Below are positions 6,395 through 40,624 of a stretch of DNA of 64,000 nucleotides, in pieces; within the stretch, counting starts at the first letter, position 1, and every line of letters begins with the position of its first letter. The notes beneath the pieces were generated by a model that did not search any database, was not told the DNA's origin, and was given only the letters and a program-made list of their open reading frames with translations. The translations under genes were made by a program, and so were the position numbers. The stretch comes from Candidatus Latescibacterota bacterium (GTDB lineage Bacteria; Latescibacterota; UBA2968; UBA8231): NCBI GenBank assembly GCA_965206595.1, contig OZ242214.1, forward strand, positions 6,944,001-7,008,000. Reading direction: 5' to 3'.

Positions 6395-6646
6395 CCCTTG
6401 TTATTCATGCAACCCGCGCATAGGCGGGCATAGGCGCTTCCGAGCCCCAATCGCATAGCCTCAGCGGCTTGCGTCCTTACTATAGTTGCCTTTTTGGGTA
6501 GAGCCGTCCCCGTACCTCTACAGACCTTTTTGAAATTGTACCCGCCTCCGTGGAGACGCTTCGCGTCCGAGCCCCCCCCCCCCGGACGACCCGGTCCCGG
6601 GGTTACGACCCAAGGGATGGCGGCTGCCTGGGACCGTCTGTGGAGA
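6395..6646 (-). mobile_element. Rearranged remnant of a related IS1380 (inverted right end plus a short direct-orientation transposase fragment)
   Basis: CCCTTGTTATTCATGCAACCCGCGCATAGGCGG resembles the reverse complement of the IS1380 right end; 6607-6646 matches 4496-4535. Confidence 0.75.
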
Positions 6647-24879: not shown

Positions 24880-25647
24880 TATGATCTGTCCCGCGCTCAG
24901 ATCGCTCACCACGGACCCCTCGGGACTGGTCAGGTCTTCCCTGCGGTCGAACGGGGTGACGTACAGCTCGATCGACCAGAAGACGGGCGCTTCCCCGATT
25001 ACCCTGCCGGCGGCCTCCGCGTAGGGGCGCAGGGTCATCCAGGAGGAGACCCCACCCACGTGTCTGGACTTCGGGTCATCCAGGAGAAGTCCGTCAGGGG
25101 TGCGGGAAATGGCATGATATGCCTGCGCATTCCCCCTACTCTCCGCGATTCTATCCCGCCCCATCCATCCTGCAAACCCGGGACCGCCGCTGTGATCTCC
25201 GTCGACTCCAAGGGCAATGCCGTCGTTACCACCTCGCCAACCGGACAGCATTCTGGCTGTGGTAGTGGTAGCAGGCCCCGTGTAGGTAAAGGTATTCCAG
25301 TAACTGTCGTCGGCGGCCACGAAGGCTACGTAGAGGCGAGCCGGCTCATCGTGCCAGGCCAGCCAGATGCGGAAGTCCAGGTCGGCCGGATCATGGATTG
25401 ATTCTTCGACCTCGTCCAGGAAATCCACCGAGGTCAGGGCAGGTTCGCCGATCAGATCGAACCACTCCTCGTACACATAGCCGTCGAGCTGAATCCCGGC
25501 CAGCATCTCGTCGGTCAGCTCGGGGATAGGGAAGACCCGACTGCCGACGTGGGCTTCTGCCCGGGCAGGCAGGCAGGCCCACAGGGCCGACCCGACGAGC
25601 AGGCCGAGGGCCATGCTCCACTGATTCCGGATGCGAAAAAGGGGCAT
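24880..25647 (-). pseudogene. DOMON/CBM9-like secreted paralog A1, 3'-truncated
   Basis: Signal peptide, HVGSRVFPI, DLDFRIWLAWHD, DGDHSGG, IELYVTPFD; homology ends after GQII and the SWGRIK tail is missing. Confidence 0.8.
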
Positions 25648-25762
25648 CTGTCTCCTCCTCTGGTTCGCCCGGCATGGGCTCGGCAGGCTTTCCCCGTTCC
25701 CTGGCGATTTTTCCTGAACGGTGCGGTCGGCCTTCGTTCTCTTCAATTTCGTTCTCTTCAAT

Positions 25763-25829
25763 AAAAAAGGACGAGGGCCCACAAAAAAGGACGAGGGCCC
25801 ACCCCCTGAAGGGGACGGAACCCTCGTCC
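25763..25829 (-). terminator. Intrinsic terminator/attenuator between peptide A and paralog A1 (3' arm duplicated)
   Basis: Minus strand stem GGACGAGGG...CCCTCGTCC followed by T6; 20-bp tandem duplication of the arm and T tract. Confidence 0.7.
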
Positions 25830-25867
25830 GTGAGTGCCTCGTCAGCGGGAAAGCCGCCACAGGATGC

Positions 25868-26119
25868 TCAGTCAGAGCACTCGCATTCCCAAGTCCCTGG
25901 GTCGGTGAGCTTAGCCCGGTACTCGTCGTGCCCAAGACGGGAGCAGTTGTAGGCGCATTTTCCGTCCGCCTCGCTGCTCGTGGAGGCGTACACCGTGTGG
26001 CAGTGGTGCCAACTGGTGCTCGAGTAGGCCTCCACCCACGACACGCCTCCGGTGGTCAGCAGGGCGCCCGCCAGGATGGCGAGGACGGCCTTCATGCTCT
26101 GCTTCAACCGATGTCTCAT
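25868..26119 (-). CDS. Secreted Cys/His-rich defensin-like peptide A
   Basis: GGAGG RBS; signal peptide ending VEA; mature HHC...CAYNCSRLGH...WECECSD; two paralogs in the window. Confidence 0.85.
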   Translation of the reverse strand: MRHRLKQSMKAVLAILAGALLTTGGVSWVEAYSSTSWHHCHTVYASTSSEADGKCAYNCSRLGHDEYRAKLTDPGTWECECSD

Positions 26120-26194
26120 TGCGGCCTCCTTTGTTTTTGGGGTCGCGCCTGTTCGCTACCCCGGTTCACCCAGATACAATGCAATGCAATGCAA

Positions 26195-26243
26195 TGCAAT
26201 AGGCGTGCCGGTACCTGGCCGGGCAATGCAATAGGCGTGCCGG
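26195..26243 (-). promoter_or_regulatory. Tandemly duplicated sigma54 -24/-12 promoter, cassette A
   Basis: Two copies of CCGGCACGCCTATTGCA (GG-N10-GC) at 26195-26211 and 26227-26243. Confidence 0.85.
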
Positions 26244-26380
26244 TACCTGGCCGGCAGCTCCATCGGTGCTTGTCCGTTATGGCGCAACTCATTGTTTTCT
26301 TCTTGTTGGTTATAACACCACATTTTTTATTTTCGGCAAAAACAAGCTCGCCTTTGCCCCCAGCGGCTGCTCGGTTTCGT

Positions 26381-26433
26381 CGTATTTAATACGATTAGGC
26401 CGTATTTGATACAATCCGGTGGTATCTAATACG
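26381..26433. promoter_or_regulatory. Three GTAT-N3-ATAC palindromes at 20-bp spacing (putative enhancer/UAS)
   Basis: CGTATTTAATACG at 26381, CGTATTTGATACA at 26401, GGTATCTAATACG at 26421. Confidence 0.75.
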
Positions 26434-26565
26434 ATTACGATTTCCCTGATGGCCGGCGGCCCGGCGGGAGCGGCTGTTGCTTCTGCTTTCCTTCTTCATT
26501 TGAATTGTACGGTCCTCAGATAGCTACCTGATCACTTTGCTCTCACAAAGAAAACAGATTCGAAG

Positions 26566-29500
26566 ATGAACGATGCACCCGAACCCCTTTCCCCATCCAC
26601 CCGGGTCGAGGGTGGACCGGTGGCTTTCGACCATATCCTCGGGCGCCAGTACACCGTCTTCGACGGGCTGGGCGGGATGCACGTGGAAGACATATACCAG
26701 GACCGCCGGGGGCTCCTGTGGGTGGCCACCGCCGACGGCGGGGTCAGCCGCTTCGACGGGGCCCGGTTCGAGACCTTCGGCCCCTCGAACGGGCTTCCCC
26801 ACCTCAACGCGATGACCATTGCCGAGGACGAGGACGGGCGCCTGCTGTTCGGGACTCTCGGGGGCGGTCTGGCCGCCTTCGACGGGCAGGGGTTTCAGGT
26901 GTACACCACCGCGGACGGACTGCCCTCCAACGACATATTGAGCCTGCACCCCCAGGCGGACGGCTCGGTACAGGTGCTGACCGGGAACGGGATCGCCCGC
27001 TTTGTCGAGGGGCGGTGCCTGGAGTCTGTGACCGACCTTGCTGACCAACCCCTCGGTGCGGTGTACGACATGGCCACCGACGCGGGGGGTACTACCTGGC
27101 TGGCGTCGCGGGAGCGGGGGATCATCGATCTGGAAGGTCAGCCCATGAACGGGCACCTGGGCACCGGGGAAACCGCCATGCAGTGGCCCTGGAAGTTCGC
27201 CCCGGACGCCTCCGGCGGTCTGTGGATCGGCTTCCGCTACGTCGGCAGCGAAGCCGTTATCGGCCGCTACGATCCCGAGCGCCAACAGCTCGACCTGATC
27301 GAGGTGGACCATGAGGTCGAAAGCGGTGAAGTCGTCCAGCACGGCACGCGGCATGTGCGCCAGGACGACAGGGGCTGGCTGTGGATGGCTCGCCGGGGGG
27401 TTCTGGTGTACGACGGGCAGGCCTGGCATCCGTTTTCGGCCCGCTTGCAGGGCACCCATTTCTCGGACACGCGGCTGACCTGCGAGGACCGCGAGGGCAA
27501 CATCTGGATCGGACTGTGGGGCGGGGGGCTGCTCTTCTGCGATCCGGTCAGCGTGCAATTGTACACGGAAGCCGACGGTCTGCCGGACAACGAGGTCCGG
27601 TGCCTGGACGAAGACGGGACGGGGCGGCTGTGGATCGGCACCATGGGGGGTCTGGCCTGCCGGGAAGACGACCGCATCCGTACGGTGGAGACCGGGCATG
27701 TAGTCTCGGCGCTGGAGGCGGACGGGCCGGAGCCGGTCTGGGGTGGCCCCGAGGGCAAGGTATTCAAATGGACGGGAAAGGAATCCCGAGCGATCGAGGT
27801 GGCCGAAACCGGCTCCGGGGAAGAGGTCACGGCCCTGTGCGCGGACGGCCGCGGGCGTGTATGGGCCGGCACCTCCCTGGGGCGCCTTGGGTGGTTGGAA
27901 GCCGACCGGTTCAACCCGTTGGCAGAAGGGCTGCCCCACGAGTGCCGCGCCGTGCTGCCGGCCCGGGACGGCGCCTTCTGGATCGGCACCGGGGGGCCCG
28001 CCCCGGCGCTGTACCGGTACGAGGACGGCCGCTTGCAGCCGCCGGCCATGGCCGGGTTGGAGGCCGTATCTCAAGTGACTGCCCTGTGCGAGCACGAAGA
28101 CAGGCTCTGGGTGGGCACAAACCAACAGCGGCCTGTTCTTCCTTGATTTCACCGCCGGGCAAGTTCGCCGGTTTACCGTGGACCAGGGGGACTTGTCGGT
28201 AAACGGCATTCTCTCCCTGCTGGCCGACCCGGAGCAGGACTGCCTGTGGGTCGGCACGAGCGGGGGGGGGCGTGATGAAGTACGACGGGCATGCTTTCCA
28301 GACCCTTCGCCTGGGGAACGCCAGCCTCGAGAACGTGGTCGAGGACATCCTGCGCGCCAGCGACGGCCGGCTGTGGTTCGGGACGCGGGCGGGGCTCATC
28401 GAGTACCAGGCAAACCGCACCCCTCCGGCCCTGGTGATCCGCGAGGTCGAGGCCGGGCGTCTCATCGAGGCCCCCCGGGCCGTGTCCTTTCCGGCAGGCA
28501 CCCGCGAGCTTCGAATCGACTTTCAAGGCATCAGTTTCCGAACCGGGGCGGATCAGATGCGCTACAGCCACCGGCTCGTGGGTCATGGCCCGGCGGAAGC
28601 CTGGAGCGAATTCACCTCCGCCGATTCGGTCTCGTTCTCCGGTCTGCCGGAAGGCCGGTTCCGCTTCGAGGTGCGCACCCGGGACCGCGACGGCCTGATG
28701 TCGGACGCGGTCAGCCTGGAGGTGCAGGTGGTCGCGGAGGAGGAAAGCGCACCCGTCCAGGCACTGAAGCACATGCCGTGGATCTCGCAGCAGGACATGC
28801 TCAGAAACAGTCCGGCCATGGCCCGGGTCCTGGAGCTGGCCGGACAGGTGGCCGGGACCGATGCGATGGTGCTGATCCTGGGCGAGACCGGGGTGGGCAA
28901 GGGGGTGCTCGCGCAGCACATTCACGCCGTGAGCCGGCGGCGGAAGCGCCCCTTTGTCGAGGTCAATTGCGGGGGCCTGCCCCCCGGGCTGGTGGAAAGC
29001 GAACTGTTCGGCCATGAAAAGGGCGCCTTTACCAACGCGGTAGAACGGAAGACAGGCCGCTTCGAACAGGCGCACGGGGGCACCCTGTTCCTCGATGAAA
29101 TCGGGGACCTGCCTGTGGAGGCCCAAAGGGTTCTGCTCCACGTTCTGGAGGATCGACACCTTTTCCGCGTCGGCGGGGAAACCCCCGTCCCGGTGGATGT
29201 CCGGGTGGTTGCGGCGACCAACCGGGATTTGAAGGAGGCCATGGACCAAGGGTTCCGGAAGGACCTGTTCTACCGCTTGAACGTGTTCCCGATAGAAATT
29301 CCGCCCCTGCGGAACCGCCGCGAGGAAATCCCGTTCCTGGCGGCCTACTTCGCGAACCGGTTTGCCCAGGAGTTAGGGCGTCCTGTTCCGACTCTGGGCT
29401 CGGAGGTGTCGAGGCATTTTCGGGAGAATCCCTGGCCGGGGAACGTGCGCGAGTTGGAGCACGTGATGCAGCGGGCGGTGATCGTGTGCCGGAATCCTGT

Positions 29501-29774
29501 CTTGCAACTCGAGGATGTGCTTTCTGTTCAGGACGGGGCAGGGGATGGACCTGTTTCGTCGCCGGCGTCCGCCCCGCCGGTCGAACAGGGTGGGGGGAGC
29601 GACTCCGACAAGGTCTTCAAAACCGAAAAGCAACAAATCCTGGAAGCCCTGAAGGCAACCGATGGGGTCATTTATGGGCCGAAGGGCGCGGCTGCCTTGT
29701 TGGGCATGAAGGTGGAGCGGTTGCGTTCCCGCATGCGTGTATACAAGCTGGAAAAACCAAAGAAGCGGTCTTGA
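26566..29774 (+). pseudogene. Sigma54-dependent activator with Reg_prop beta-propeller and Y_Y_Y sensor; two +1 frameshifts (~28118 and the G9 tract at 28262-28270)
   Basis: Repeated EDxxGxLWxGT blades; Y_Y_Y domain; GETGVGK, ESELFGHEKGAFTNA, FLDEIG, AATN, WPGNVREL; C-terminal HTH. ORFs 26566, 28178 and 28272 step +1/+1 in frame. Confidence 0.88.
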
Positions 29775-29871
29775 ACGGGGCTCTACCCGACGCGCCCCTC
29801 GGTGTCTCCGGTTTGGCGATTCGCCAGTGTGGCAGCACCATGGCGGATATTTTCCCCCACTTTCCCGGGGA

Positions 29872-30810
29872 TTACCAGTCAGCCAGCCAGCTGCTTAACC
29901 ATCGATTCATTCTATCGAAGAACGGTTCCGGCCTGTTGGAGACGAAGCAGATGCTCTCGCCGTCCGGCGACCAGGCCGGCTCCCGGTCCGTGAACTCCGT
30001 GGTCAACCTCGTCAGGCCGGTTCCGTCAACCGCCATGCGGTAGATATTGTCGTTCCAGTCCCGGTTGGACACGAAGGCGATCTCCCTGCCGTCGCCGGAC
30101 CAGGACGGCTCCCGGTCCTGGCGGGGGTGATTGCTGAGGTTGAACACCTCTCCGCTGACTACCTCAACGAGACAGATCTCGAAATTGCCGAAGCGGTCGC
30201 TCTCGATGGCGATGCGGCCCCCGGGGGACCAGACCGGACGCGCGTCGTGCCCCTCGTGCCGGGTCAGGTTTCTCAGGTTCCGGCCCTCAACATCGACGAG
30301 GTACACTTCGAGATTGCCGTCGCGGAACGTGGTAAAGGCGAAGAACCGTCCGTCGGGCGACCAGGCCGGCTGGATGCCGTTCTCCACGACCCGCCTTAGC
30401 CTTGGCACCGGCTCGCCGCCGGCCAGCTTCATGACGTAAATGTCGTACGACCCCTCGGCTGTTCCGCCGGCGAAGGCGATGGCCGTACCGTCCGGCGACC
30501 AGGAGAGGCCGGCCACGCTGGTTATCGGCGACGGTACCGACACCCTCGTCAGTCTCTCGCCGGCCGCGGAAACCACGTGGAACTCGTTTTTGTTTTCGGC
30601 GTGGGCGACGTACAGGACGCGCCGGCCGTCCGGGGCCCAGCGCGGGCTGGCGGTTCCCCATCCGGTTTTCTCGGCGGATATGCGCTGGACAGAGGATCCG
30701 TCCCGAGACATGCGAAAGACGCTCCCCTCGAAGTCGTGGGCGACGGCGGGGGGCTGCCACAGGAGCGGACAGAGCGAAAGGAAGACGGTCAGCTTGAGCG
30801 GTCCAGGCAT
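29872..30810 (-). CDS. Secreted TolB/PD40 beta-propeller protein
   Basis: Signal peptide ending AVA-H; WSPDG / FVSNR / ESDR repeats; last gene of cassette B. Confidence 0.85.
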   Translation of the reverse strand: MPGPLKLTVFLSLCPLLWQPPAVAHDFEGSVFRMSRDGSSVQRISAEKTGWGTASPRWAPDGRRVLYVAHAENKNEFHVVSAAGERLTRVSVPSPITSVAGLSWSPDGTAIAFAGGTAEGSYDIYVMKLAGGEPVPRLRRVVENGIQPAWSPDGRFFAFTTFRDGNLEVYLVDVEGRNLRNLTRHEGHDARPVWSPGGRIAIESDRFGNFEICLVEVVSGEVFNLSNHPRQDREPSWSGDGREIAFVSNRDWNDNIYRMAVDGTGLTRLTTEFTDREPAWSPDGESICFVSNRPEPFFDRMNRWLSSWLADW

Positions 30811-30844
30811 GTGTTCAGTAGAAGGAGGGCGGGAAAGGGCCAAG

Positions 30845-31854
30845 CTATTCGAACTCCAGGGAGGCCTTGATCCGACCCCAGGAAACCGCATCGACGGCGC
30901 TGCCTTCGATGCGCCCGGCCGGGTCGGAGGACAGCAGCAACCCGTCGACAAGGCCATTCCCGCGAGCGTTCCACAGGTCCACATACGCAGGTTTATCATC
31001 GGGCGGTTGCATTCCTTCGGGTTTCCAAAGCATCCACTCAAATGCATCGTCGTGGTCAGCTACCAAAATCGTAAAGCCGATGATCTGCCCGGCGGCCAGG
31101 TCGCTGACCAGGTGATCCCCGGCGCTGTCCCATCCTCCGCCCCAGCGGTCGAACGGGGTGACGTACAGCTCGATCACGCTGATGACGGGCGCTTCTCCGG
31201 CCACGCTACCGCCTCCTTCCCCGTAGGGAGGCAGGACCGTCCAAGGAAACTCCCCCGTCTGGTGTCTGGTGGCCACGTCATCCAGAATCGGGCCGCCGAC
31301 GGTGCGGGCAACCGCCTCGTACCACTGAGTCTGCCCACGAGCCTGCGGCCAATCCTCCTGTGAGCAACCCTCATTGGTACACCCCGCCCCTCCGCTGTGG
31401 TCTCCGTCGAATCCCATCATGATACTGTCATGATTCATCATATCATACTAGATGATTCAAACCAATCCCCACTGTAATCGTGGGTGTTGTCGTACACGTC
31501 GTCGCTGGCCACGAAAGCGACGTAGAGACGGGCAGGGTCGTCGTGCCAGGCCAGCCAGATGCGGAAGTCCAGGTCGGACGGATCCGGTCCCCGGCCCCAC
31601 TCTTCTTGGAAATCCAGCAGGGTCATGGACGGCTCGCCGACCAACTCCTGCCACTCGTCTATGCGGCCGTCGTCGAGCCGGATCTGTTCCAGCATCTCGT
31701 CGGTAAGCTCGGCAATCGGGTACAGGCGATCGCCGACATGGGCCCCGGCCTGGACAGACAGGCTGGCCGGCATCGCCAGGCAGAGGAGCAGAATCAGGGC
31801 GGGGTGCCCCTGTTGCCAGATCCGGGTGGTACAAGCCTTGTCCATGCGTTTCAC
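30845..31854 (-). pseudogene. DOMON/CBM9-like secreted paralog B1, frameshifted near 31445
   Basis: ORFs 31438-31854 and 30845-31441 together give a full paralog ending SAVDAVSWGRIKASLEFE; about 1 bp lost relative to the 36769 paralog. Confidence 0.85.
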
Positions 31855-31967
31855 TCCTTGCTCAATTTCCGCTGTAATCCCCGAACCGCCACCGGTCTTC
31901 CGGGCCGATACGGGACGGCCGGGTTTTTATGCATTTCCGGCATGAAAGCGGACAACTGACGTCTCAT
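31851..31967 (-). pseudogene. Degenerate peptide gene of cassette B
   Basis: Same promoter, leader and GGAGG RBS as cassette C and start MRRQL, but no hydrophobic core and no cysteines. Confidence 0.55.
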
Positions 31968-32027
31968 TTCCTGCCTCCTCTTGTTTTGGGGTCGCGCCTG
32001 TTCGCTACCCCGGTCACCCAAATACCA

Positions 32028-32044
32028 TGCAATGGGCGTGCCTG
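32028..32044 (-). promoter_or_regulatory. Sigma54 -24/-12 promoter, cassette B
   Basis: CAGGCACGCCCATTGCA (GG-N10-GC). Confidence 0.85.
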
Positions 32045-32178
32045 TACCTGGCCGGCAGAGCTCATGAATGGCGTATGTAGTTGCGTAACCTGTTGTTTTA
32101 CTGTGTCTTACTAATATCACTTTTTCTTTTTTCGTCGCCATCAGCTCGTCCTTGTCGCTACCGGCTTCTCGGTCCCGC

Positions 32179-32191
32179 CGTATTATATACG
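32179..32191. promoter_or_regulatory. GTAT-N3-ATAC palindrome (putative UAS), cassette B
   Basis: CGTATTATATACG. Confidence 0.7.
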
Positions 32192-32526
32192 GTTTTCACC
32201 GACGGGCCGCCGCCCGCCCCTCCTCCTTCAAGCTCGGTTCTACTCGAAAGAAGCCGCGCCGTCTCAGGCGCTGGATCGCTGGTTTTTTTCCGAAAATGGA
32301 AATTCTGCGAGGGAGTTCAGGTTTGACCCCCTTGCCGCGGGCAGGTGCCGAGCAGGCCCTGGCCGAACAGGCGGGTGATCTCGTCGACTTCGTAGCGCGG
32401 AAGCGGCACCAGGCGGCCTCGCCTCCGCAGTGGCAGGCCGGCGGACCGGCCGACCGCACGGGCGAGGACCTCGGCACCGATCCGGAAGCCCGCCGGGAAA
32501 TCGTGCAAATGCGAGAAAGATCGGGC

Positions 32527-33504
32527 TTACTCCATCTCCAACGAGGCTTTGATCCGCCCCCAGGAAACCGACTCGACCGCGCTGTCCCCTGGGTCGGTCG
32601 AGCCCGCGGGCAGCAGCAGCCCGTCGAGAAAGGTATCCGCCCGATTAAAAGAAATGTTGTTAAAGAACGTGGTGGATGTCTCGTCTGGTTGCTGGACTTC
32701 GACCGACCATCTTTGGGCATCAAATGCAGGCGGGTCATGGTCAAGCACTACCATCGCGAAACCGATCACCTGTCCCGCAGCAAAATCGCTGACCACGCTC
32801 CCCTCGGGGCTTTGCCACGTTTCCCCCCAGCGGTCGAACGGGGTCACGTACAGCTCGATCACCCAGATGACCGGAGCTTCTCCGGCCGCGCCGCCGCCGC
32901 TATCCCCATAGGGTGGCAAGGTCGTCCATGAAGCCTGTCCAATCTGGAATCTATACCTAAAATCATTCAGGGTCGGACCCCTGACAGTACGGGAAATAGC
33001 CTGGTAAAACGGAGCTTGCCCATGAATCTCGATAGCTTTTTCCAGTGGAGTTTCGGAATTACTCCCCTTTCCGCCGCTATGGTCTCCGTCGATCGCCAGC
33101 ATGATGCTGTCATACTGGGACATTCCATCACCAGAAGAACCGTAGTCGTGGGTGTTCTTGTACACGTCGTCGCTGGCCACGAAGCCGACATAGAGACGGG
33201 CCGGCTCGTCGTGCCAGGCCAGCCAGATGCGGAAGTCCAAGTCGGAAGGATCAGGTAGCAAAGGAGGCGAATGCGGCTCTTCTCCCGTGAAATCCAGTAG
33301 CGTCATAGTCGGCTCCCCGACCAGCTCGTACCACTCGTCTACCAACCCGTCGTCGAGTTGGATCTGTTCCAGCATTTCGTCACTGAGATAGGGAATCGGG
33401 AACACGCGGTCTCCGAGGTGGGCCTCTGCCCGGGCAGACAGCCCCAATCCGAGAAACAGAAAAAGGGCGGCGTGCCATTGCTTCCTGATACGAACACGGG
33501 TCAC
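32527..33504 (-). CDS. DOMON/CBM9-like secreted paralog C1
   Basis: Signal peptide AEA-H; LDDGLVDEW, DLDFRIWLAWHD, DSIMLAIDGDHSGG, IELYVTPFD, GQVIGF..V.DHD; tail SAVESVSWGRIKASLEME. Confidence 0.88.
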   Translation of the reverse strand: MTRVRIRKQWHAALFLFLGLGLSARAEAHLGDRVFPIPYLSDEMLEQIQLDDGLVDEWYELVGEPTMTLLDFTGEEPHSPPLLPDPSDLDFRIWLAWHDEPARLYVGFVASDDVYKNTHDYGSSGDGMSQYDSIMLAIDGDHSGGKGSNSETPLEKAIEIHGQAPFYQAISRTVRGPTLNDFRYRFQIGQASWTTLPPYGDSGGGAAGEAPVIWVIELYVTPFDRWGETWQSPEGSVVSDFAAGQVIGFAMVVLDHDPPAFDAQRWSVEVQQPDETSTTFFNNISFNRADTFLDGLLLPAGSTDPGDSAVESVSWGRIKASLEME

Positions 33505-33895
33505 GAGTTTTTCTCCTGTGTGAAGTTTGAACTGGCTTGCCTGCTTCGGGCAGGCATGGTGTGGTTAATGCAGGGCAGGCAGGCGCGGTGTCAATTCCTT
33601 CGTTCAGGTCTGGCTGCAACCCTTTGCTCACTTGCTCACCTATTGAGCGCTTGCGCGCGGGGCACCGCATCCGCCTGTCTGCCGGCACAGGCAGGCGGGC
33701 TGAACACCCTCCGTCGACGAGATCCCCGGATTCAAGCAGCCACTATCCCAGCATGGTCTATTTCCTGGACCGCTCCCTGCGCAGTGCGGCCAGGGCAGAA
33801 AGCCCGGCAGGAAAGGCGGAACAGCGCCCACACCCCTTAAAGAAACAGGGCATGGGCGCCTGAGCGACTGGAGCCTCCCCGCAGGAGGGGAGAGC

Positions 33896-34096
33896 TCAGT
33901 CGCAGTTGCAGCAGCCGTTGTAGGAGTACCCGTGCCCCAGTACGGAGCACAGGTAGGCGCACTCGCCGGCGGAGTTAACATTGGTGAAATGGTGCTGTCC
34001 GGTATGTGCGCTCAAGAAGACTGCACCGGCCGCGAGCATGACTCCCGCCGCAACGGCGAGGAAAGCCTTCCTGCTCCGATTCAATTGACGTTTCAT
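33896..34096 (-). CDS. Secreted Cys/His-rich defensin-like peptide C (66 aa)
   Basis: MKRQLNRSRKAFLAVAAGVMLAAGAVFLSA-HTGQHHFTNVNSAGECAYLCSVLGHGYSYNGCCNCD; GGAGG RBS. Confidence 0.88.
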   Translation of the reverse strand: MKRQLNRSRKAFLAVAAGVMLAAGAVFLSAHTGQHHFTNVNSAGECAYLCSVLGHGYSYNGCCNCD

Positions 34097-34157
34097 TTCT
34101 GCCTCCCTTTGGATTTTGGGGTCGCGCCTGTTCGCTACCCCGGTCACCCAAATACCA

Positions 34158-34174
34158 TGCAATGGGCGTGCCTG
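34158..34174 (-). promoter_or_regulatory. Sigma54 -24/-12 promoter, cassette C
   Basis: CAGGCACGCCCATTGCA. Confidence 0.85.
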
Positions 34175-34308
34175 TACCTGGCCGGCAGAGCTCATGAATG
34201 GCGTATGTAGTTACGTAACCTATTGTTTTACTGTGTCTTACTAATATCACTTTTTCTTTTTTCGTCGCCATCAGCTCGTCCTTGTCGCTACCGGCTTCTC
34301 GGTCTCGC

Positions 34309-34341
34309 CGTATTATATACGGTCTCGCCGTATTATATACG
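34309..34341. promoter_or_regulatory. Two GTAT-N3-ATAC palindromes at 20-bp spacing (putative UAS), cassette C
   Basis: CGTATTATATACG at 34309 and 34329. Confidence 0.75.
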
Positions 34342-34674
34342 GTTTCGCCGACGGGCCGCCGCCCGCCCCTCCTCCTTCAAGCTCGGTTCTACTCGAAAGA
34401 AGCCGCGCCCGTCTCAGGCGCTGGATCGCTGGTTTTTTTCCGAAAATGGAAATTCTGCGAGGGAGTTCAGGTTTGACCCCCTTGCCGCGGACAGGTGCCG
34501 AGCAGGCCCTGGCCGAACAGGCGGGTGATCTCGTCGACTTCGTAGCGCGGAAGCGGCACCAGGCGGCCTCGCCTCCGCAGTTGCAGGCCGGCGGACCGGC
34601 CGACCGCACGGGCGACGACCTCGGCGCCGATCCGGAAGCCCGCCGGGAAATCGTGCAATGCGAGAAAGATCGGG

Positions 34675-35661
34675 CTACTCCATCTCCAACGAGGCTTTGA
34701 TCCGCCCCCAGGAAACCGACTCGACCGCGCTGTCCCCTGGGCCGGCCGGATCGGCAGGCAGCAGCAGCCCGTCGAGAAAGGTATCCGCCCGATTAAAAGA
34801 AATGTTAAAGAACGTGGTGAACCAGGTGTATGTGTCGTCTGGTTGCTGGACTTCGGCCGACCATTCCTGGGGATCAAATGCAGGGGGGTCATGGTCGAGC
34901 ACTGCAATCGCGAAACCGATCACCTGGTCCGCGGCAAAACGGCTGACCACGCTCCCCTCCGGGCTTTGCCACGTTTCCCCCCAGCGGTCGAACGGGGTCA
35001 CGTACAGCTCGATCACCCAGATGACCGGAGCTTCTCCGGCCGCGCCGCCGCCGCTATCCCCATAGGGTGGCAAGGTCGCCCATGAAGCCTTTCCAATCTG
35101 GAATCTATACGAAGAATCATTCAGAGTCGGACCGCTGACAGTACGGGAAATAGCCTCGTAATCCGGAGCTTGCCCATAAAATTCGATAGCTTCTTCCCAT
35201 GGAGTGTTCTGGTCTCTCCCCCTTCCTCCGCTGTGGTCTCCGTCGATCGCCAACACGATGCTGTCATGCTCATTTCCGAAGGAAGGTGAACTACTGTAGT
35301 CGTGGGTGTTCTTGTACACGTCGTCGCTGGCCACGAAAGCGACGTAGAGACGGGCCGGCTCGTCGTGCCAGGCCAGCCAGATACGGAAGTCCAGGTCGGA
35401 AGGATCAGGCAGCAAAGGAGGCGAGTGCGGCATATGTCCCGTGAAATCCAGCAGGGTCATGGCCGGTTCGCCGATCAACTCGTACCACTCGTCTATGCGG
35501 CCGTCGTCGAGCCGGATCTGTTCCAGCATCTCGTCGGTAAGCTCGGCAATCGGGTACAGGCGATCGCCGAGGTGGGCCTCTGCTGGGACGGCGGATATTG
35601 CCAACCATAAAAGCAGGACCAAACTGCATTCAACTGCTTTTCGGATACGAACACGAGGCAT
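34675..35661 (-). CDS. DOMON/CBM9-like secreted paralog D5
   Basis: Same motifs as C1; SWGRIK tail. Confidence 0.88.
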   Translation of the reverse strand: MPRVRIRKAVECSLVLLLWLAISAVPAEAHLGDRLYPIAELTDEMLEQIRLDDGRIDEWYELIGEPAMTLLDFTGHMPHSPPLLPDPSDLDFRIWLAWHDEPARLYVAFVASDDVYKNTHDYSSSPSFGNEHDSIVLAIDGDHSGGRGRDQNTPWEEAIEFYGQAPDYEAISRTVSGPTLNDSSYRFQIGKASWATLPPYGDSGGGAAGEAPVIWVIELYVTPFDRWGETWQSPEGSVVSRFAADQVIGFAIAVLDHDPPAFDPQEWSAEVQQPDDTYTWFTTFFNISFNRADTFLDGLLLPADPAGPGDSAVESVSWGRIKASLEME

Positions 35662-35727
35662 GAGTCTTTCTCCATTCTGAGCGCTGTGAAAGCCCGAGGG
35701 CGATCACCGGAGAGGACGATACGCCGG

Positions 35728-36702
35728 TTACTCCATCTCCAGGGCGGCCTTGATTCGCCCCCAGGAAACCGACTCGACCGCGCTGTCTCCAGGCTGGGGC
35801 GAGCCCGCGGGCAGCAGGATGCCATCGACAAAGGTATCTCCTCTTACATCCCACAATTCTCCGAACACACTTCCATCAGACCGATGCATGGCTTCAGGTA
35901 CCCAACCCCTCCATCTCCCAGGTGGATCGCGGTCATGTACAATAATCGCAAAACCAATTACCTTCCCTGCGGCCAGGTCGCTGACCAGGTGATCCCCGGC
36001 GCTACTCCACCCTCCCCCCCAATGGTCGAAAGGGGTCACGTACAGTTCGATCACGCTGATGACGGGAGCTTCTCCGGCCACGCCTCCGCCCCCATCCCCA
36101 TAGGGAGGAAAAACCGTCCAAGGAAACTCCCCCGTCTGGTGTCTGACGCCCGGGTCATCCAGGGTCGGGCCGCCGACGGTGCGGGCAATTGCCTCGTACC
36201 ACTGAGTTTGCCCATGAGCTTCCGGCCAATCCGCTTCCAGTGAGCAACTCGAGGTACAACCCGCCCCCCCGCTGTGGTCTCCGTCGAATCCCATCATGAT
36301 ACTGTCATGATCCATCATATCATCTCTAGTAGATGATTCAAACCAATCCCCACTGTAGTCGTGGGTGTTTTTGTACAGGTCGTCGCCAGCCACGAAGGCC
36401 ACATAGATGCGAGCCGGGTCGTCGTGCCAGGCCAGCCAGATGCGGAAGTCCAGGTCGGACGGATCCGGTTCCAGGTTCTCCCACTCCTCTTTGAAATCCA
36501 GCAGGGTCATGGACGGCTCGCCGACCAACTCGTACCACTCGTCTATGCGCCCGTCGTCGAGCTGGATCTGTTCCAGCATCTCGTCTGTGAGCTCGGCAAT
36601 CGGGAACACGCGGTCGCCGACGTGGGCTTCGGCAGATATTGCCAACCATAAAAGCAGGACCAAACTGCATTCAACTGCTTTTCGGATACGAACACGAGGC
36701 AT
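35728..36702 (-). CDS. DOMON/CBM9-like secreted paralog D4
   Basis: Same motifs; GAGCTSSCS loop; SWGRIK tail. Confidence 0.88.
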   Translation of the reverse strand: MPRVRIRKAVECSLVLLLWLAISAEAHVGDRVFPIAELTDEMLEQIQLDDGRIDEWYELVGEPSMTLLDFKEEWENLEPDPSDLDFRIWLAWHDDPARIYVAFVAGDDLYKNTHDYSGDWFESSTRDDMMDHDSIMMGFDGDHSGGAGCTSSCSLEADWPEAHGQTQWYEAIARTVGGPTLDDPGVRHQTGEFPWTVFPPYGDGGGGVAGEAPVISVIELYVTPFDHWGGGWSSAGDHLVSDLAAGKVIGFAIIVHDRDPPGRWRGWVPEAMHRSDGSVFGELWDVRGDTFVDGILLPAGSPQPGDSAVESVSWGRIKAALEME

Positions 36703-36768
36703 GAGTCTTTCTCCATTCTGAGCGCTGTGAAAGCCCGAGGGCGATCACCGGAGAGGACGATACGCCGG

Positions 36769-37752
36769 TTACTCCATCTCCAGGGCGGCCTTGATTCGCC
36801 CCCAGGAAACCGACTCTACGGCGCTGTCTCCCGGCTCGGGGGGCAGCAGGAGGCCGTCGAGAAATGAATCTCCTCTTCTGTCCCACAATTCTCCAATCGC
36901 AATTCCATCAAGCCGCTGCATGGCTTCGGGTGCCCAACCCCTCCATCTCCCAGGTTGATCGCGGTCATGTACAATGATCGCAAAACCGATTACCTTCCAT
37001 GCGGCCAGGTCGCTGACCAGGTGATCCCCGGCGCTGTCCCATCCTCCCCCCCAATGGTCGAACGGGGTCACGTACAGCTCGATGACGCTGATGGTCGGGT
37101 TTTCTCCGGCCACGCCTCCGCCCCCATCCCCATAAGGAGGAAAAACCGTCCAAGGGAACTCCTCCGTCCGGTGTCTGACGCCCGGGTCATCCAGGGTCGG
37201 GCCGCCGACGGTACGCGCAATTGCCTCGTACCACTGAGTTTGCCCATGAGCTTCCGGCCAATCCTCCTGTGAGCAACTCGAGGTACAACCCGCCCCCCCG
37301 CTGTGGTCTCCGTCGAATCCCAGCATGATACTGTCATTATCCATCATATTATCTCTAGATGATCCGAACCAATCCCCCCCACTGTAGTCGTGGGTGTTCT
37401 TGTACACGTCGTCGCCGGCCACGAAGGCCACATAGATGCGAGCCGGCTCGTCGTGCCAGGCCAGCCAGACGCGGAAGTCCAGGTCGGACGGATCCGGTTC
37501 CAGGTCCTCCTCCCACTCCTCTTTGAAATCCAGCAGGGTCATGGACGGCTCGCCGACCAACTCGTACCACTCGTCTATGCGCCCGTCGTCGAGCCGGATC
37601 TGTTCCAGCATCTCGTCGCTGAGATAGGCAATCGGGAACACGCGGTCGCCGACGTGGGCCTCTGCCCGGGCAGACAGGCCGGCAGATATTGCCAACCATA
37701 GAAGCAGGACCAAACTGGCATTCAACTGCTTTCGGGTACGAGTACGGGTCAT
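36769..37752 (-). CDS. DOMON/CBM9-like secreted paralog D3
   Basis: Same motifs; GAGCTSSCS loop; SWGRIK tail. Confidence 0.88.
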   Translation of the reverse strand: MTRTRTRKQLNASLVLLLWLAISAGLSARAEAHVGDRVFPIAYLSDEMLEQIRLDDGRIDEWYELVGEPSMTLLDFKEEWEEDLEPDPSDLDFRVWLAWHDEPARIYVAFVAGDDVYKNTHDYSGGDWFGSSRDNMMDNDSIMLGFDGDHSGGAGCTSSCSQEDWPEAHGQTQWYEAIARTVGGPTLDDPGVRHRTEEFPWTVFPPYGDGGGGVAGENPTISVIELYVTPFDHWGGGWDSAGDHLVSDLAAWKVIGFAIIVHDRDQPGRWRGWAPEAMQRLDGIAIGELWDRRGDSFLDGLLLPPEPGDSAVESVSWGRIKAALEME

Positions 37753-37818
37753 GAGTCTTTCTCCATTCTGAACGCTGTGAAAGCCCGAGGGCGATCACCG
37801 GAGAGGACGATACGCCGG

Positions 37819-38778
37819 CTACTCCATCTCCAGGGAGGCCTTGATACGGCCCCAGGAAACCGACTCGACCGCGCTGTCTCCCGGGCCGGCCAAGTCGGCG
37901 GGCAGCAGCAGCCCATCGAGAAAGCCGTCTGCCCGGTGGTGAAAGAAAATTCGAAAAAGGTCCGTGGGGGTGTATTCTCCAGACTGCAGGGCTTCGGGTA
38001 CCCAATCCACCCAGTCGGAATCCGGCGACTCCCTATCCCGTACCGAAATCGCGAAGCCGATTACCTGTCCCGCTGTCAGATCGCTGACCGTGATCTCCCC
38101 GGGGCTGTGCCATCCCGCCCAGCGGTCGAACGGGGTGACGTACAGCTCGATGACGCTGATGGTCGGGTTTTCTCCGAACACCCCGCCACCGCCCTCCCCG
38201 TAGGGTGGAAAGACCGTCCAGGCGTACTCCCCCGTCTGGACTCTGGTGCCCCCGTCATCAAGGGTCGGGCCGATGGGAGTTCGGGCAATCGCCTCGTACA
38301 TCTGAGTCCGCCCGGCGATCTCCTCCCACTCTTCCAGCTGCGTACTGTTGCCAGCGCCGGCACCGCCGCTGTGATCTCCATCGATTACCAGCACAATACT
38401 GTCATTGTTGATGAAAAGTTCATCCGAGGCCCAACTGTGGGTGTTCTCGTACACGTCGTCGCTCGCGATGAAGGCGAGGTAGAATCGAGCCGGGTCGTCG
38501 TGCCAGGCCAGCCAGATGCGGAAGTCCAGATCGGACGGATCAGGTGTCACCTCTCCCCTCCGGTCGGCAAAATCCAGCACCGTCATGGTCGGTTCCCCGA
38601 CCAGCTCGGACCACTCGTCCACCAAGCCGTCCTTGAGATCGATCCTTTCCAGCATCTCGTCACTGAGATAGGGAATCGGGTACACGCGGTCTCCGAGGTG
38701 GGCCCCGGAGGACATCGCCAGTCCCAGGAGCAGAACGAGGGGGGCGTGCCATTGCTTCCTGATGGGAAAACCGATCAC
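37819..38778 (-). CDS. DOMON/CBM9-like secreted paralog D2
   Basis: GTG start after GGGAGA; signal peptide SGA-H; same motifs and tail. Confidence 0.87.
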   Translation of the reverse strand: MIGFPIRKQWHAPLVLLLGLAMSSGAHLGDRVYPIPYLSDEMLERIDLKDGLVDEWSELVGEPTMTVLDFADRRGEVTPDPSDLDFRIWLAWHDDPARFYLAFIASDDVYENTHSWASDELFINNDSIVLVIDGDHSGGAGAGNSTQLEEWEEIAGRTQMYEAIARTPIGPTLDDGGTRVQTGEYAWTVFPPYGEGGGGVFGENPTISVIELYVTPFDRWAGWHSPGEITVSDLTAGQVIGFAISVRDRESPDSDWVDWVPEALQSGEYTPTDLFRIFFHHRADGFLDGLLLPADLAGPGDSAVESVSWGRIKASLEME

Positions 38779-38851
38779 AAGTTTTCTCCCTTGTCTGACG
38801 CCCGGCGCGGTCGAGGCTCGAGAACCGCGCAAAGGATGGTCCGCATGCCGG

Positions 38852-39808
38852 CTACTCCATCTCCAGGGAAGCCTTGATCCGCCCCCAGGAAACCGACTCC
38901 ACCGCGCTGACACCCGGTCCGGCCGGATCGGCGGGCAGCAGCAGCCCGTCGAGAAAGGAATCCGCCCGATTGCGAATTATGTTCCAGAAGGTGGTGTCGG
39001 TCTCGTCTGACTGCTGGACTTCGACCGACCATCTTTTGACATCAATTGCAGGCGGGTCATGGTCAAGCACTACCATCGCGAAACCGATCACCTGTCCTGC
39101 GGCAAAATGGCTGACCACGCTCCCCTCGGGGCTTTCCCACGGTTCCCCCCAGCGGTCGAACGGCGTCACGTACAGCTCGATCACCCAGATGACCGGGGCT
39201 TCTCCGGCCACGCCGCCGCCGCCTTCCGCATAGGGTGGCAAGGTCGTCCATGAAGCCTGTCCAATCTGGACCCTATAGGGCACATCATTCAAGGTCGGAC
39301 CGCTGGCTGTGCGGGAAATAGCCTGGTAAGACGGAGCTTGCCCATGAATCTCGATAGCTTCTTCCAGTGGAGTGTTGGAGTCACCCCCCCTTCCTCCGCT
39401 ATGGTCTCCGTCGATTGCCAGCATGATGCTGTCATTTTCATGTAGGTATGGAGAACTACTGTAATCGTGGTTGTTCTTGTACACGTCGTCGCTGGCCACG
39501 AAGGCGACATAGAGGCGGGCCGGCTCGTCGTGCCAAGCCAGCCAGATGCGGAAGTCCAGATCCGCAGGATCGAGCGGCGATTGGTGGATTTCTTCGGTGA
39601 AGTCCAGCAGCGACAGGGTGGGCTCTCCGACCAACTCGTACCACTCGTCCACCAACCCGTCGTCGAGCTGGATTCCGGCCAGCATTTCGTCGCTGAGATA
39701 GGGAATCGGGTACACGCGGTCTCCGAGGTGGGCCCCGGAGGACATCGCCAGTCCCAGGAGCAGAACGAGAGCGGCGCGCCATGGCTTTTTGGTACAAACT
39801 CGGGTCAT
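38852..39808 (-). CDS. DOMON/CBM9-like secreted paralog D1
   Basis: Start MTRVCTKK after AGGAG; same motifs and tail. Confidence 0.88.
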   Translation of the reverse strand: MTRVCTKKPWRAALVLLLGLAMSSGAHLGDRVYPIPYLSDEMLAGIQLDDGLVDEWYELVGEPTLSLLDFTEEIHQSPLDPADLDFRIWLAWHDEPARLYVAFVASDDVYKNNHDYSSSPYLHENDSIMLAIDGDHSGGRGGDSNTPLEEAIEIHGQAPSYQAISRTASGPTLNDVPYRVQIGQASWTTLPPYAEGGGGVAGEAPVIWVIELYVTPFDRWGEPWESPEGSVVSHFAAGQVIGFAMVVLDHDPPAIDVKRWSVEVQQSDETDTTFWNIIRNRADSFLDGLLLPADPAGPGVSAVESVSWGRIKASLEME

Positions 39809-40176
39809 GGGTCTTCTCCTGCGCGAAGTTTGGACCGGCTGCCTGCTTCGGGCAGGCATTGTGTGGATAAAGCCCGGATCAATGGAGCGCTTGCGGACGG
39901 CCGGGCCCGCAATCCGCCTTTCTGCCTCCTGCCTGTCTCCTCTCTGCCTCGGCACAGGCAGGCGGGGCTGAAGACTTCCATCGACGAGACTATCCTGATT
40001 CATGCGCCGTCGAAATGCCTAATGCCGTCTTTGGTTATTTCTTGGAGCGCTCCCTGCGAGTCGCAGGGGGACCCCAAGAACCCAGCAGGAAATGCGGAAA
40101 GGCGCCCACACCCTATAGAAACAGGGCGCGGGCGCCTGAGCGGACTCGAGCCTCCCCCTTGGCAGGAGGGGAGAGC

Positions 40177-40383
40177 TCAGTTGCATTCGCAGCAGTTCCA
40201 AGAATCGTAGTAGGTGTACCCGTGCCCCAATTGAGAGCACATGTAGGCGCAATCATCTTCGGAGTCAACTCCGCTGAAATGGTGCGAACTGCCTGCGCTC
40301 AAGAAGGCCGCACCGGCCGCGAGCATGACCCCCGCCGCGATGGCGAGAAGGGCCTTTCTGCTCCGATTCAAATGACGTTTCAT
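40177..40383 (-). CDS. Secreted Cys/His-rich defensin-like peptide D (68 aa)
   Basis: Signal peptide ending LSA; GSSHHFSGVDSEDDCAYMCSQLGHGYTYYDSWNCCECN; AGGAGG RBS. Confidence 0.88.
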   Translation of the reverse strand: MKRHLNRSRKALLAIAAGVMLAAGAAFLSAGSSHHFSGVDSEDDCAYMCSQLGHGYTYYDSWNCCECN

Positions 40384-40442
40384 GGCTTCCTCCTGTGGTT
40401 TCGGGGCCGCGCCTTTCGCTAACCCCGTTCACCCAGAAGAGA

Positions 40443-40459
40443 TGCAAACGGCGTGCCTG
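40443..40459 (-). promoter_or_regulatory. Sigma54 -24/-12 promoter, cassette D
   Basis: CAGGCACGCCGTTTGCA (GG-N10-GC). Confidence 0.87.
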
Positions 40460-40593
40460 TACCTGGCCTGCGCCTCCACGAATGGGAACTGTAGTTCCGT
40501 AAGTCATTATTTTTCAGGTCTTTTACAAAATGTTTTTTATTTTTCGGGGGGCCGTCAGCTCGTTTTTGCCACGAACCGGCTTCCCGTGTCCGC

Positions 40594-40624
40594 CGTATTA
40601 AATACAAATTTTTGTATTTAATAC
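40594..40624. promoter_or_regulatory. Two GTAT-N3-ATAC palindromes (putative UAS), cassette D
   Basis: CGTATTAAATACA at 40594 and TGTATTTAATAC at 40613. Confidence 0.72.

Follow-up and report, generated by a model that had tools for sequence, protein, structure and literature searches.

Introduction

Enhancer-dependent sigma-54 promoters, with their activators of the NtrC/XylR class (bacterial enhancer-binding proteins, bEBPs), are the closest described counterparts of the control DNA in the locus presented here. This locus lies between positions 24880 and 40624 of a 64,000-nucleotide stretch, referred to below as the window (G000:C1:6944001-7008000), of the single-contig 7.05-Mb genome of a Candidatus Latescibacterota bacterium, which we call the own genome (G000). 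It contains one control module in four occurrences, ahead of genes for a small cysteine-containing peptide, for a family of larger proteins with a predicted CBM9/DOMON fold (the paralogs) and for a PD40 beta-propeller, together with a divergently oriented activator gene. The likeness to bEBP systems extends to the AAA+ Sigma54_activat domain with its GAFTxA loop, to a putative C-terminal Fis-type helix-turn-helix (here a match below its cut-off), to the palindromes placed 140-190 bp upstream of a GG-N10-GC promoter across an A-rich spacer that resembles a site for integration host factor (IHF), and to the divergent orientation of regulator and target. What sets the locus apart is the sensor, a predicted cytoplasmic Reg_prop/Y_Y_Y beta-propeller from an uncharacterised family, and the fact that the regulator is frameshifted in this genome.

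The products of the locus may likewise be compared with described proteins. The beta-sandwich modelled for the paralogs resembles that of family 9 carbohydrate-binding modules (CBM9), represented by CBM9-2 of Thermotoga maritima Xyn10A (1I82) and the Caldicellulosiruptor structures 7NWN and 7NWO, with Foldseek E values from 4e-8 to 4e-7 and TM scores, taken on the target, of 0.70-0.73; sequence identity to these solved structures is 11-15%. However, CBM9 domains are modules of enzymes, whereas the paralogs are stand-alone proteins of ~300 aa that are predicted to be exported, and they possess an invariant histidine at the predicted mature N-terminus, a DGDH[S/T]GG motif and a disordered SWGRIKA tail, with 97 matches in one genome. 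For the peptide the nearest comparison is with the bacterial cis-defensins. In the accessible portion of PMC11561630 these are divided into five classes, including xanthusin-1, which is without antimicrobial activity; bacterial defensins are reported there from three phyla, Latescibacterota not among them, and all 74 that are described have three disulfides and a GXC motif. The locus peptide resembles them in being small and exported, with a helix C-x3-C tied to a strand C-x-C, both predicted here. It differs in having two conserved disulfides instead of three and no conserved GXC, in being acidic and His-rich with an invariant histidine placed four residues after the second cysteine, and in that its gene always stands first, in front of CBM9-like genes. 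Finally, TolB and related propellers share PD40 repeats and predicted export with the last component of the locus, but the PD40 gene described here is present in more than 12 copies, each adjoining a CBM9-like gene, and lies outside a tol-pal operon.

Literature searches turned up no description of this layout or of an activator of this kind, in keeping with an initial annotation, made from the sequence alone, to which no described system with such a layout was known; the accessible part of a Latescibacterota genome paper mentions carbohydrate-binding modules only as a class of carbohydrate-active enzymes (CAZymes). We conclude that the switch is classical and that the cargo is an undescribed, lineage-specific, three-part exported gene set. 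What is new is the PD40 propeller as a recurrent third component, the prediction that all three exported proteins begin with histidine, the restricted distribution of the peptide and the finding that the activator is polymorphic. Our preferred reading, to which we assign a probability of about one half, is that the region is a locus of a lineage-specific sigma-54 regulon for an exported and most probably glycan-binding surface set, in which the peptide is an accessory and not a toxin.

Results

A control module repeated four times

The minus strand of the locus carries the same control module in four places, and these define cassettes A, B, C and D (Table 1). Each module consists, in order, of one to three palindromes, a conserved block followed by an A-rich tract, an AAACAA-N4-TTR element, a promoter, and a conserved leader that contains a hairpin and the ribosome site AGGAGG. 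There are eight palindromes, all of them 11-bp GTAT-N3-ATAC dyads, and five exact minus-strand GGCAC-N5-TTGC sites, two of which form a tandem duplicate in cassette A. The promoter consensus of the four cassettes is GGCACG-N4-TTGC. In every case the promoter-proximal dyad is separated from the GG of the -24 box by approximately 143 bp, with the A-rich tract in between. The layout of palindrome, AT-rich spacer and GG-N10-GC promoter that had been proposed in the initial annotation is therefore borne out in all four cassettes. We take the AAACAA-N4-TTR element to resemble the IHF consensus.

By itself the sequence GTAT-N3-ATAC is not enriched in the genome, where 22 occurrences are observed against ~26 expected. 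Dyads with an A/T-rich center number 14 in the genome; eight of these are at the locus and four are distributed among three other cassettes (at 0.52, 6.470 and 6.475 Mb), so that 12 of the 14 fall in the seven such cassettes found genome-wide. A stricter form of the promoter pattern, GGCAC-N5-TTGC[AT], occurs 28 times in 7.05 Mb. When six cassettes are aligned the mean column identity is 64%, and nonetheless all the motif blocks are kept, namely the dyad, GAAGCC..GGCGACA, the A-tract, AAACAA-N4-TTR, the GGCAC-N5-TTGC promoter and the leader hairpin. The upstream regions of cassettes B and C are 98-99% identical, as expected of recent duplicates, and because of this they count as one instance. 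A single rpoN gene is present in the genome (Sigma54_DBD, 204 bits).

Two observations on individual cassettes may be recorded here. In cassette A the duplicated promoter is followed by four to five CATTG repeats (window 26169-26241), and contigs from public sequencing runs appear to be cut at this place. The seventh cassette (G000:C1:6469734-6470775) has two dyads ~0.9 kb apart from the promoter (GGCACGCCTTTTGC), and the intervening stretch looks like an inserted mobile element; in this cassette the promoter drives a paralog directly, with no peptide gene.

An activator transcribed divergently from cassette A

The activator matches Sigma54_activat (E 7.6e-66), AAA_lid_14, Y_Y_Y and Reg_prop (E 1.3e-33) in Pfam, and its translation has GAFTNA as the sigma-54-contact loop. 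No hydrophobic segment is read in its N-terminus, and the propeller sensor is therefore predicted to be cytoplasmic. A PADLOC search matched only the generic AAA+ and helix-turn-helix parts of this protein. The initial annotation had placed a beta-propeller sigma-54 activator divergently from cassette A. Its domains and orientation are as stated, but the gene is not one open frame here, since it is broken by one-base insertions at 28121 and in a run of nine G residues at 28262-28270. In a contig of DNA run X4 there is one letter fewer at both of these places, and a 1068-codon open frame results. Behind the G run, the AAA+/helix-turn-helix part keeps a 500-codon open frame of its own, which begins with a GTG at 28272. 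The run of nine G replaces GGC GGC GGG of the relatives, and could represent either a slipped-strand switch or a plain mutation.

A second genome of the same genus, G002, has five copies of the activator with open frames of 1072-1115 aa. Beside one intact copy (L077) there are three dyads, a promoter and a peptide gene, and beside another (L080) there are three dyads and a promoter, with no peptide match within the stretch examined. Each of the three activator copies of the own genome stands beside a cassette and is divergent from it. The expected linkage of activator and promoter is thus found in three of three cases, with the same layout at L077. Taken with the activator domains, the single rpoN gene and the conserved -24/-12 boxes and dyads, these data uphold the classification of the regulatory design as a classical bEBP/sigma-54 enhancer system. 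Full-length relatives of the activator (1040-1070 aa, with the same domains) are numerous, with 3695 matches at E<=1e-10 among 7998 candidates scored. The few that are named are entered as 'sigma 54-interacting transcriptional regulator' of Gemmatimonadota, and the family is abundant in metagenomes of Latescibacterota and Gemmatimonadota.

Paralogs with a predicted CBM9/DOMON fold

An AlphaFold model of paralog C (mean pLDDT 72, pTM 0.76) was compared with solved structures by Foldseek. The best match was to the CBM9 structure 1i82_A (E 3.9e-8, TM 0.70), followed by 7nwn and by 7nwo, the latter with TM 0.73; weaker matches were to the haem-binding, DOMON-type subunits NxrC of nitrite oxidoreductase and EbdC of ethylbenzene dehydrogenase. 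The nearest ESM Atlas clusters carry CBM9_1 and are from Latescibacterota, Gemmatimonadota and Poribacteria. Together the model and these clusters support the earlier assignment of a DOMON/CBM9 fold, as a prediction. A sequence search of the solved structures with the paralog profile gave nothing significant (best E 0.022), NCBIfam holds no family for either the paralogs or the peptides, and none of the 730 paralog relatives in the protein collection has a name.

The family has 97 matches in the own genome, which form 59 clusters at a permitted gap of 2.5 kb and 64 at one of 1.5 kb, and because of this number the paralogs cannot be called specific to the locus. Members with 30-40% identity keep DGDH[S/T]GG, several tryptophan and aspartate residues, and a C-terminal SAVExxSWGRIKA, which lies in the disordered part of the paralog model. 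Tails of the SWGRIKA type end 68 open reading frames (ORFs) of the genome, of which 55 overlap paralog matches and 13 do not. The more general form is [ST]WGxIK, often preceded by AVE, with non-paralog examples at G000:C1:48336-49067, 689121-690791 and 4998575-4999675. To judge from these sequences the tail looks like a general sorting or docking tag; literature searches on it found no description.

Pairwise ratios of nonsynonymous to synonymous change (dN/dS) among six intact paralogs are 0.33-0.47, which indicates purifying selection. Positive selection on the paralogs, judged over whole genes, is rejected on these values, and the description of the system as diversifying is not borne out. 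Synonymous divergence (dS) forms a mosaic along the genes, which suggests gene conversion. One ORF, P0049 (539 aa), was considered as a possible fusion protein and was rejected as such, since it arises by reading through from a broken paralog upstream.

Distant genomes of Latescibacterota and Gemmatimonadota (L043:397-12873, and also L038 and L040-L058) have a single paralog homologue, situated within a conserved cluster. Its neighbors there are an acyltransferase, a PMT_2 membrane glycosyltransferase, two unknown proteins and two large proteins that carry C-terminal domains of type IX secretion, and a PD40 propeller lies at a distance of ~3.7 kb.

A cysteine mini-protein

An alignment of 19 peptide sequences, representing precursors of 63-96 aa with a signal peptide, shows C46, C50, H55, C63 and C65 to be invariant in all 19. 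In the structural model, with a core pLDDT of ~85, a helix at 43-53 holds C46 and C50, and strands are predicted at 57-59 and 63-65, the latter with C63 and C65. The peptide had been called defensin-like. The arrangement of a C-x3-C helix and a C-x-C strand agrees with this description, but the four invariant cysteines, the anionic character and the lack of a conserved GXC do not. Foldseek with the peptide model, in a query that included the signal helix, gave no match at E<=0.001 (best E 2, with the plant defensin 6dmz appearing only at E 7.8), and ESM Atlas had no peptide match at 0.9 or above.

The family is rare. Among 1.84 billion representatives it has 39 matches, and of the 13 that were read 2 are unrelated proteins. 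Close relatives in a larger protein collection number 11, none with a name. Within the phylum it is found in 5 of 168 genomes, with 15 matches in the own genome and 12 in G002; the search of the third genome of this genus gave no peptide match. A Cys-rich peptide of G127 and G129 matches at E 2.8e-6, with no paralog within the 1.5 kb examined, and the match in G089 is broken and weak. Other small exported Cys-rich peptides, belonging to different sequence families, lie upstream of paralogs at G000:C1:5331828, 2862385 and 3478355, and one of these has six or more cysteines that include C-x3-C and C-x-C.

Peptide genes D, C and A are each followed directly by a pair of stem-loops (Table 1). Structural genes of bacteriocins are usually arranged in this manner, with a small first gene and then strong hairpins. 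It is therefore appropriate to ask whether the locus encodes a pair of bacteriocin type, in which a defensin-like antimicrobial or signalling peptide is made in bulk and the downstream proteins are immunity factors, carriers or receptors, which corresponds to the effector/immunity possibility raised in the initial annotation. The C-x3-C...C-x-C frame with its helix-plus-hairpin model speaks for such a pair, and bacterial cis-defensins exist (the accessible portion of PMC11561630). However, as read from the sequences, the mature peptides carry a net negative charge (about -6, -2 and -4) and no cationic patch; the four invariant cysteines, with no conserved G-x-C column in the alignment, differ from the three disulfides and GXC of every bacterial defensin listed in that portion of the source, where even xanthusin-1 lacks antimicrobial activity; and the structural comparison gave no significant match. 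In addition, the cassettes are without a transporter, protease or modification gene, and the paralog family is far larger and older than the peptide. We consider a bacteriocin-type pair to be very improbable.

Linkage of the peptide, the paralogs and a PD40 propeller

In the own genome all 19 matches to the peptide hidden Markov model have a same-strand paralog 100-1507 bp downstream, although some of these matches are overlapping frames of one gene, and in G002 a paralog is found within 1.5 kb of 12 of 12 peptide matches. In more distant genomes the paralog is present without the peptide. The proposed peptide-DOMON linkage thus holds inside the genus. In these two genomes a paralog accompanies every peptide match, but the paralog family is far larger and not peptide-specific.

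The gene that had been described as TolB-like is more narrowly a PD40 propeller (PD40 repeats, E 2.4e-39), given a TIGR02800 score of 178.4 bits against a cut-off of 343 and the CBM9-like neighbors. The 12 best PD40 matches in the genome are each 20-360 bp from a paralog, and a PD40 homologue lies within 10 kb downstream of 14 of the 19 peptide matches. From these counts the recurring unit begins with the peptide, continues with at least one CBM9-like protein and ends with the PD40 propeller. Taken together, cassettes D, C and B resemble a single unit of this kind, enlarged by internal duplication.

Distances between peptides are correlated with those between the adjacent paralogs (Mantel r 0.53, a value reached in 0 of 2000 permutations), and this correlation implies joint inheritance only, not binding. 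When the mature forms of peptide C and paralog C were co-folded, the scores were 0.00 and 0.06 against a mark of 0.32, and these carry no information on binding either way.

A predicted shared N-terminal histidine

Cleavage sites were assigned by eye under a crude A-x-A rule, in place of a trained predictor, and the statements that follow are to be read with this in mind. Histidine is found immediately after the predicted A-x-A cleavage site in 18 of 23 paralog ORFs and in 3 of 164 other signal-like ORFs, and two of these three are PD40 proteins that adjoin paralogs. The residue in question, H29, which would be the first of the mature protein, is invariant in 63 paralog relatives and is kept in 10 of 11 sequences with 30-40% identity, the eleventh being cut short by the coordinates chosen. 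At least 9 of 14 PD40 neighbors have [A/G/S]|H at the predicted cleavage site. Among the peptides 9 of 19 are predicted to start with histidine, and by reading the others have HH within a few residues. That three unrelated folds, encoded together, should all be predicted to begin with histidine is the most unusual feature seen in these sequences.

Lytic polysaccharide monooxygenases (LPMOs), CopC and related proteins use an N-terminal histidine brace. Because three co-encoded and unrelated folds are predicted to start with this residue, an alternative must be considered in which the module is centered on metal. The three exported proteins would bind or pass a metal ion, copper being the obvious one, through the amino group and imidazole of the N-terminal histidine in the manner of a histidine brace. 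The His-rich mini-protein would be a carrier or chaperone, and the DOMON/CBM9-fold proteins would be metalloproteins for redox or capture. Besides the frequencies just described, this proposal has in its favor the one invariant histidine of the peptide core and the nature of the next-best folds, which are those of the haem-binding subunits NxrC and EbdC. On the other side, the frequencies themselves depend on the crude cleavage rule, no copper-handling genes were noted beside the locus, the paralog fold is that of CBM9 and not of an LPMO, and the many invariant aspartates (for example those in DGDH[S/T]GG) could be CBM9 calcium sites. We regard the proposal as unlikely. A more elaborate form can be imagined, namely a new extracellular metal-handling module, probably for copper, in which a secreted metallochaperone of defensin fold would serve metalloproteins of the histidine-brace type, and these would carry out oxidation or electron transfer on glycans of a host or of algae, all three components having the N-terminal histidine and the SWGRIKA tail docking them to the envelope. 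This form we consider quite unlikely.

Strain variation, RNA contigs and signs of decay

At least half of the sampled words of a 5.3-kb test stretch from the locus are present in eleven public runs, and the 20 matching entries are spread over 9 studies. The locus is therefore real DNA that has been seen repeatedly. In DNA contigs there are joints between paralog copies, which may be strain rearrangements or effects of the assembly graph.

Evidence from RNA consists of assembled contigs of two RNA libraries (X19 and X20). X19 has an exact 285-nt piece in the AAA+ region of the activator (window 28728-29012). From X20 there are a 1222-nt piece that matches the propeller region at ~91% identity, short paralog pieces and a 223-nt piece at 40356-40570. 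Since the latter spans the first 28 nt of peptide D, the promoter and the spacer, it is not by itself a promoter-initiated transcript. No peptide gene is wholly covered by RNA contigs, and carry-over of DNA is possible. The library with the exact 285-nt activator piece is labelled 'sponge metagenome', which is only a hint of habitat.

As all three activator copies are frameshifted, the set may not be expressed in this genome, or its expression may rely on the C-terminal piece without sensor that begins at 28272; constitutive activity is common among activators of this class that lack the sensor. A further possibility is a decaying repeat locus, in which the cassettes were left behind by segmental duplication and gene conversion and can no longer be switched on, so that their repetition says little about function. 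Several observations suit this idea: the near-identity of the B and C control regions, the deletion of peptide B, the frameshift in paralog B and the truncation of paralog A, the frameshifts in every activator copy, the mosaic dS that gene conversion would give, the insertion sequence (IS) that adjoins cassette D and the IS-like stretch that splits the dyads from the promoter in the seventh cassette. Against these, there are six intact paralogs, whose dN/dS is well below one as given above, and three intact peptide genes; the control motifs are kept between cassettes that have otherwise diverged; run X4 and G002 have the activator in unbroken form, and its AAA+/helix-turn-helix part retains a long frame from the GTG even here; and the stretch recurs across runs and studies. 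On balance we doubt that the locus is simply decaying.

Layout of the locus

Table 1. Coordinates of the features of the locus in the window.
Feature	Position	Strand	Evidence
CBM9-like paralog A, truncated	24880-25647	-	profile match
Two stem-loops directly 3' of peptide gene A; a U6 run comes after the second	25780-25867	-	z -3.55
Peptide A, 83-aa precursor: signal peptide, His-rich stretch, C-x3-C...H...C-x-C core	25868-26119	-	
Tandem -24/-12 promoter pair of cassette A, 26196-26209 and 26228-26241 (GGCACGCCTATTGC), then CATTG repeats	26196-26241	-	
Three GTAT-N3-ATAC dyads at 20-bp spacing (26382, 26402, 26422), between the divergent activator and cassette A	26382-26432	.	
Sigma-54 activator, broken into three frames	26566-29774	+	Reg_prop, Y_Y_Y, AAA+, weak HTH_8
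PD40 beta-propeller, predicted exported, predicted mature N-terminus HDFEG	29872-30810	-	
CBM9-like paralog B, two ORFs by frameshift near 31441	30845-31854	-	
Remnant of peptide gene B, 38-codon ORF	31851-31967	-	
Control region of cassette B: promoter 32029-32042, single dyad 32180-32190	32029-32190	-	
CBM9-like paralog C, 325 aa, intact; the protein used for modelling	32527-33504	-	
Two strong stem-loops directly 3' of peptide gene C	33810-33895	-	z -5.61
Peptide C, 66-aa precursor; predicted mature form 36 aa, His first	33896-34096	-	
Control region of cassette C: promoter 34159-34172, dyads 34310 and 34330	34159-34340	-	
Five intact tandem CBM9-like paralogs, D5 to D1: 34675-35661, 35728-36702, 36769-37752, 37819-38778, 38852-39808	34675-39808	-	
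Two strong stem-loops directly 3' of peptide gene D	40090-40176	-	z -7.13
Peptide D, 68-aa precursor	40177-40383	-	
Control region of cassette D: conserved 5' leader, promoter 40444-40457, A-rich tract, dyads 40595 and 40614	40384-40624	-	
IS transposase (DUF4372 and DDE_Tnp_1); locus boundary ~130 bp past the D dyads	40755-41939	+	Pfam

The paralogs are distributed over the cassettes as had been claimed, with five in D, one in C, one together with the PD40 gene in B and one in A. The regularity of the fourfold repeat is another matter. The control part is present in all four modules, but paralogs A and B are damaged, and of the Cys/His peptide expected in every cassette the profile search finds three genes, in A, C and D. 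The 38-codon ORF in cassette B has only its first five codons in common with the peptide, and lacks the cysteine core. The frameshift in paralog B is not at a homopolymer. Homology in paralog A is limited to residues 4-249 of 325, so that the C-terminal SWGRIK tail is absent, and its frame continues antisense to a sulfatase gene. Carbohydrate-related genes around the locus are those for a GH32 protein, the sulfatase and an SDR protein. An Rfam search of the region gave no match.

Some further features of the window may be noted. The transposase gene next to cassette D sits in a stretch of ~53% G+C, and a second one (DDE_Tnp_1_4) is found at 44540-46072. Third-position G+C (window 32527-40003) is 0.66-0.74 in the paralogs and ~0.9 in flanking genes of housekeeping type. 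There is a C12 homopolymer at 6572-6583.

Discussion

The sequences and models show the parts of the locus, their order, their conservation, their linkage and their folds, and these are the basis for the following model. The activator, a cytoplasmic protein of ~1068 aa, would combine a sensor made of the Reg_prop propeller and Y_Y_Y domain with an AAA+ domain for contact with sigma-54 and a C-terminal helix-turn-helix. It would switch on when the propeller senses a cytoplasmic and probably sugar-derived ligand; this type of sensor domain senses oligosaccharides in the hybrid two-component systems of Bacteroides. Dimers of the activator would then bind the 11-bp GTAT-N3-ATAC palindromes and, looping over the A-rich IHF-like bend, open the -24/-12 promoters ~143 bp downstream, where transcription is presumed to start. 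Each promoter would drive an operon of exported proteins whose first product is a mini-protein of 36-50 residues with two disulfides, a helix-plus-hairpin (defensin-like) form and a His-rich N-terminus. The two strong stem-loops behind its gene may keep the peptide message abundant and pass only part of transcription to the genes that follow. These would supply one to five CBM9/DOMON-fold proteins, His-first and with the invariant SAVExxSWGRIKA tail, and a PD40 beta-propeller would close the array. The products would be binding proteins, secreted or located at the cell surface. The tail would dock them to the envelope, and the peptide would be an accessory partner of the paralog array and not a toxin.

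The suggestion that the set binds glycans derives from the CBM9 fold, from the carbohydrate genes nearby and from the type of sensor domain. Several results weigh against our preferred reading, and they concern first the exported proteins. The glycan-binding role is deduced from a predicted fold, yet in Pfam the four window paralogs scanned match 0 families at E<=0.01, and CBM9_1 is touched weakly by 7 of 63 paralog relatives (best E 1.2e-4). The predicted shared N-terminal histidine and the His-rich peptides would suit a metal role better than a lectin role. Second, the integrity of the locus is compromised. There is damage to paralogs A and B and to peptide B, every activator copy of the own genome is frameshifted, and run X1, the DNA run with the best match, agrees with the broken form of the activator that is present in the window. 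The activator match to HTH_8 is 16.2 bits, under the cut-off of 22. Finally, a peptide match is located within 900 bp upstream of only 9 of 64 paralog clusters, and 55 of 64 are without one. Since most clusters lack the peptide and there are only seven cassettes with dyads, the sigma-54 switch and the peptide are best regarded as optional additions to the paralog family.

With its 11-bp dyad, its fixed 143-bp spacing and an activator that belongs to a large and unstudied family, the locus offers a compact system in which to look for the ligand of a Reg_prop/Y_Y_Y propeller. The paralog family makes up a visible share of a 7-Mb genome and, from related-locus records and ESM Atlas clusters, extends through Latescibacterota and also to Gemmatimonadota and Poribacteria. 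If the C-terminal tail is a sorting or docking signal, it would point to an undescribed route of export or anchoring. If the N-terminal histidine binds metal, these proteins would form a new class of extracellular metalloproteins with a helper of defensin fold. Either outcome would help to explain how these uncultured bacteria handle their surroundings.

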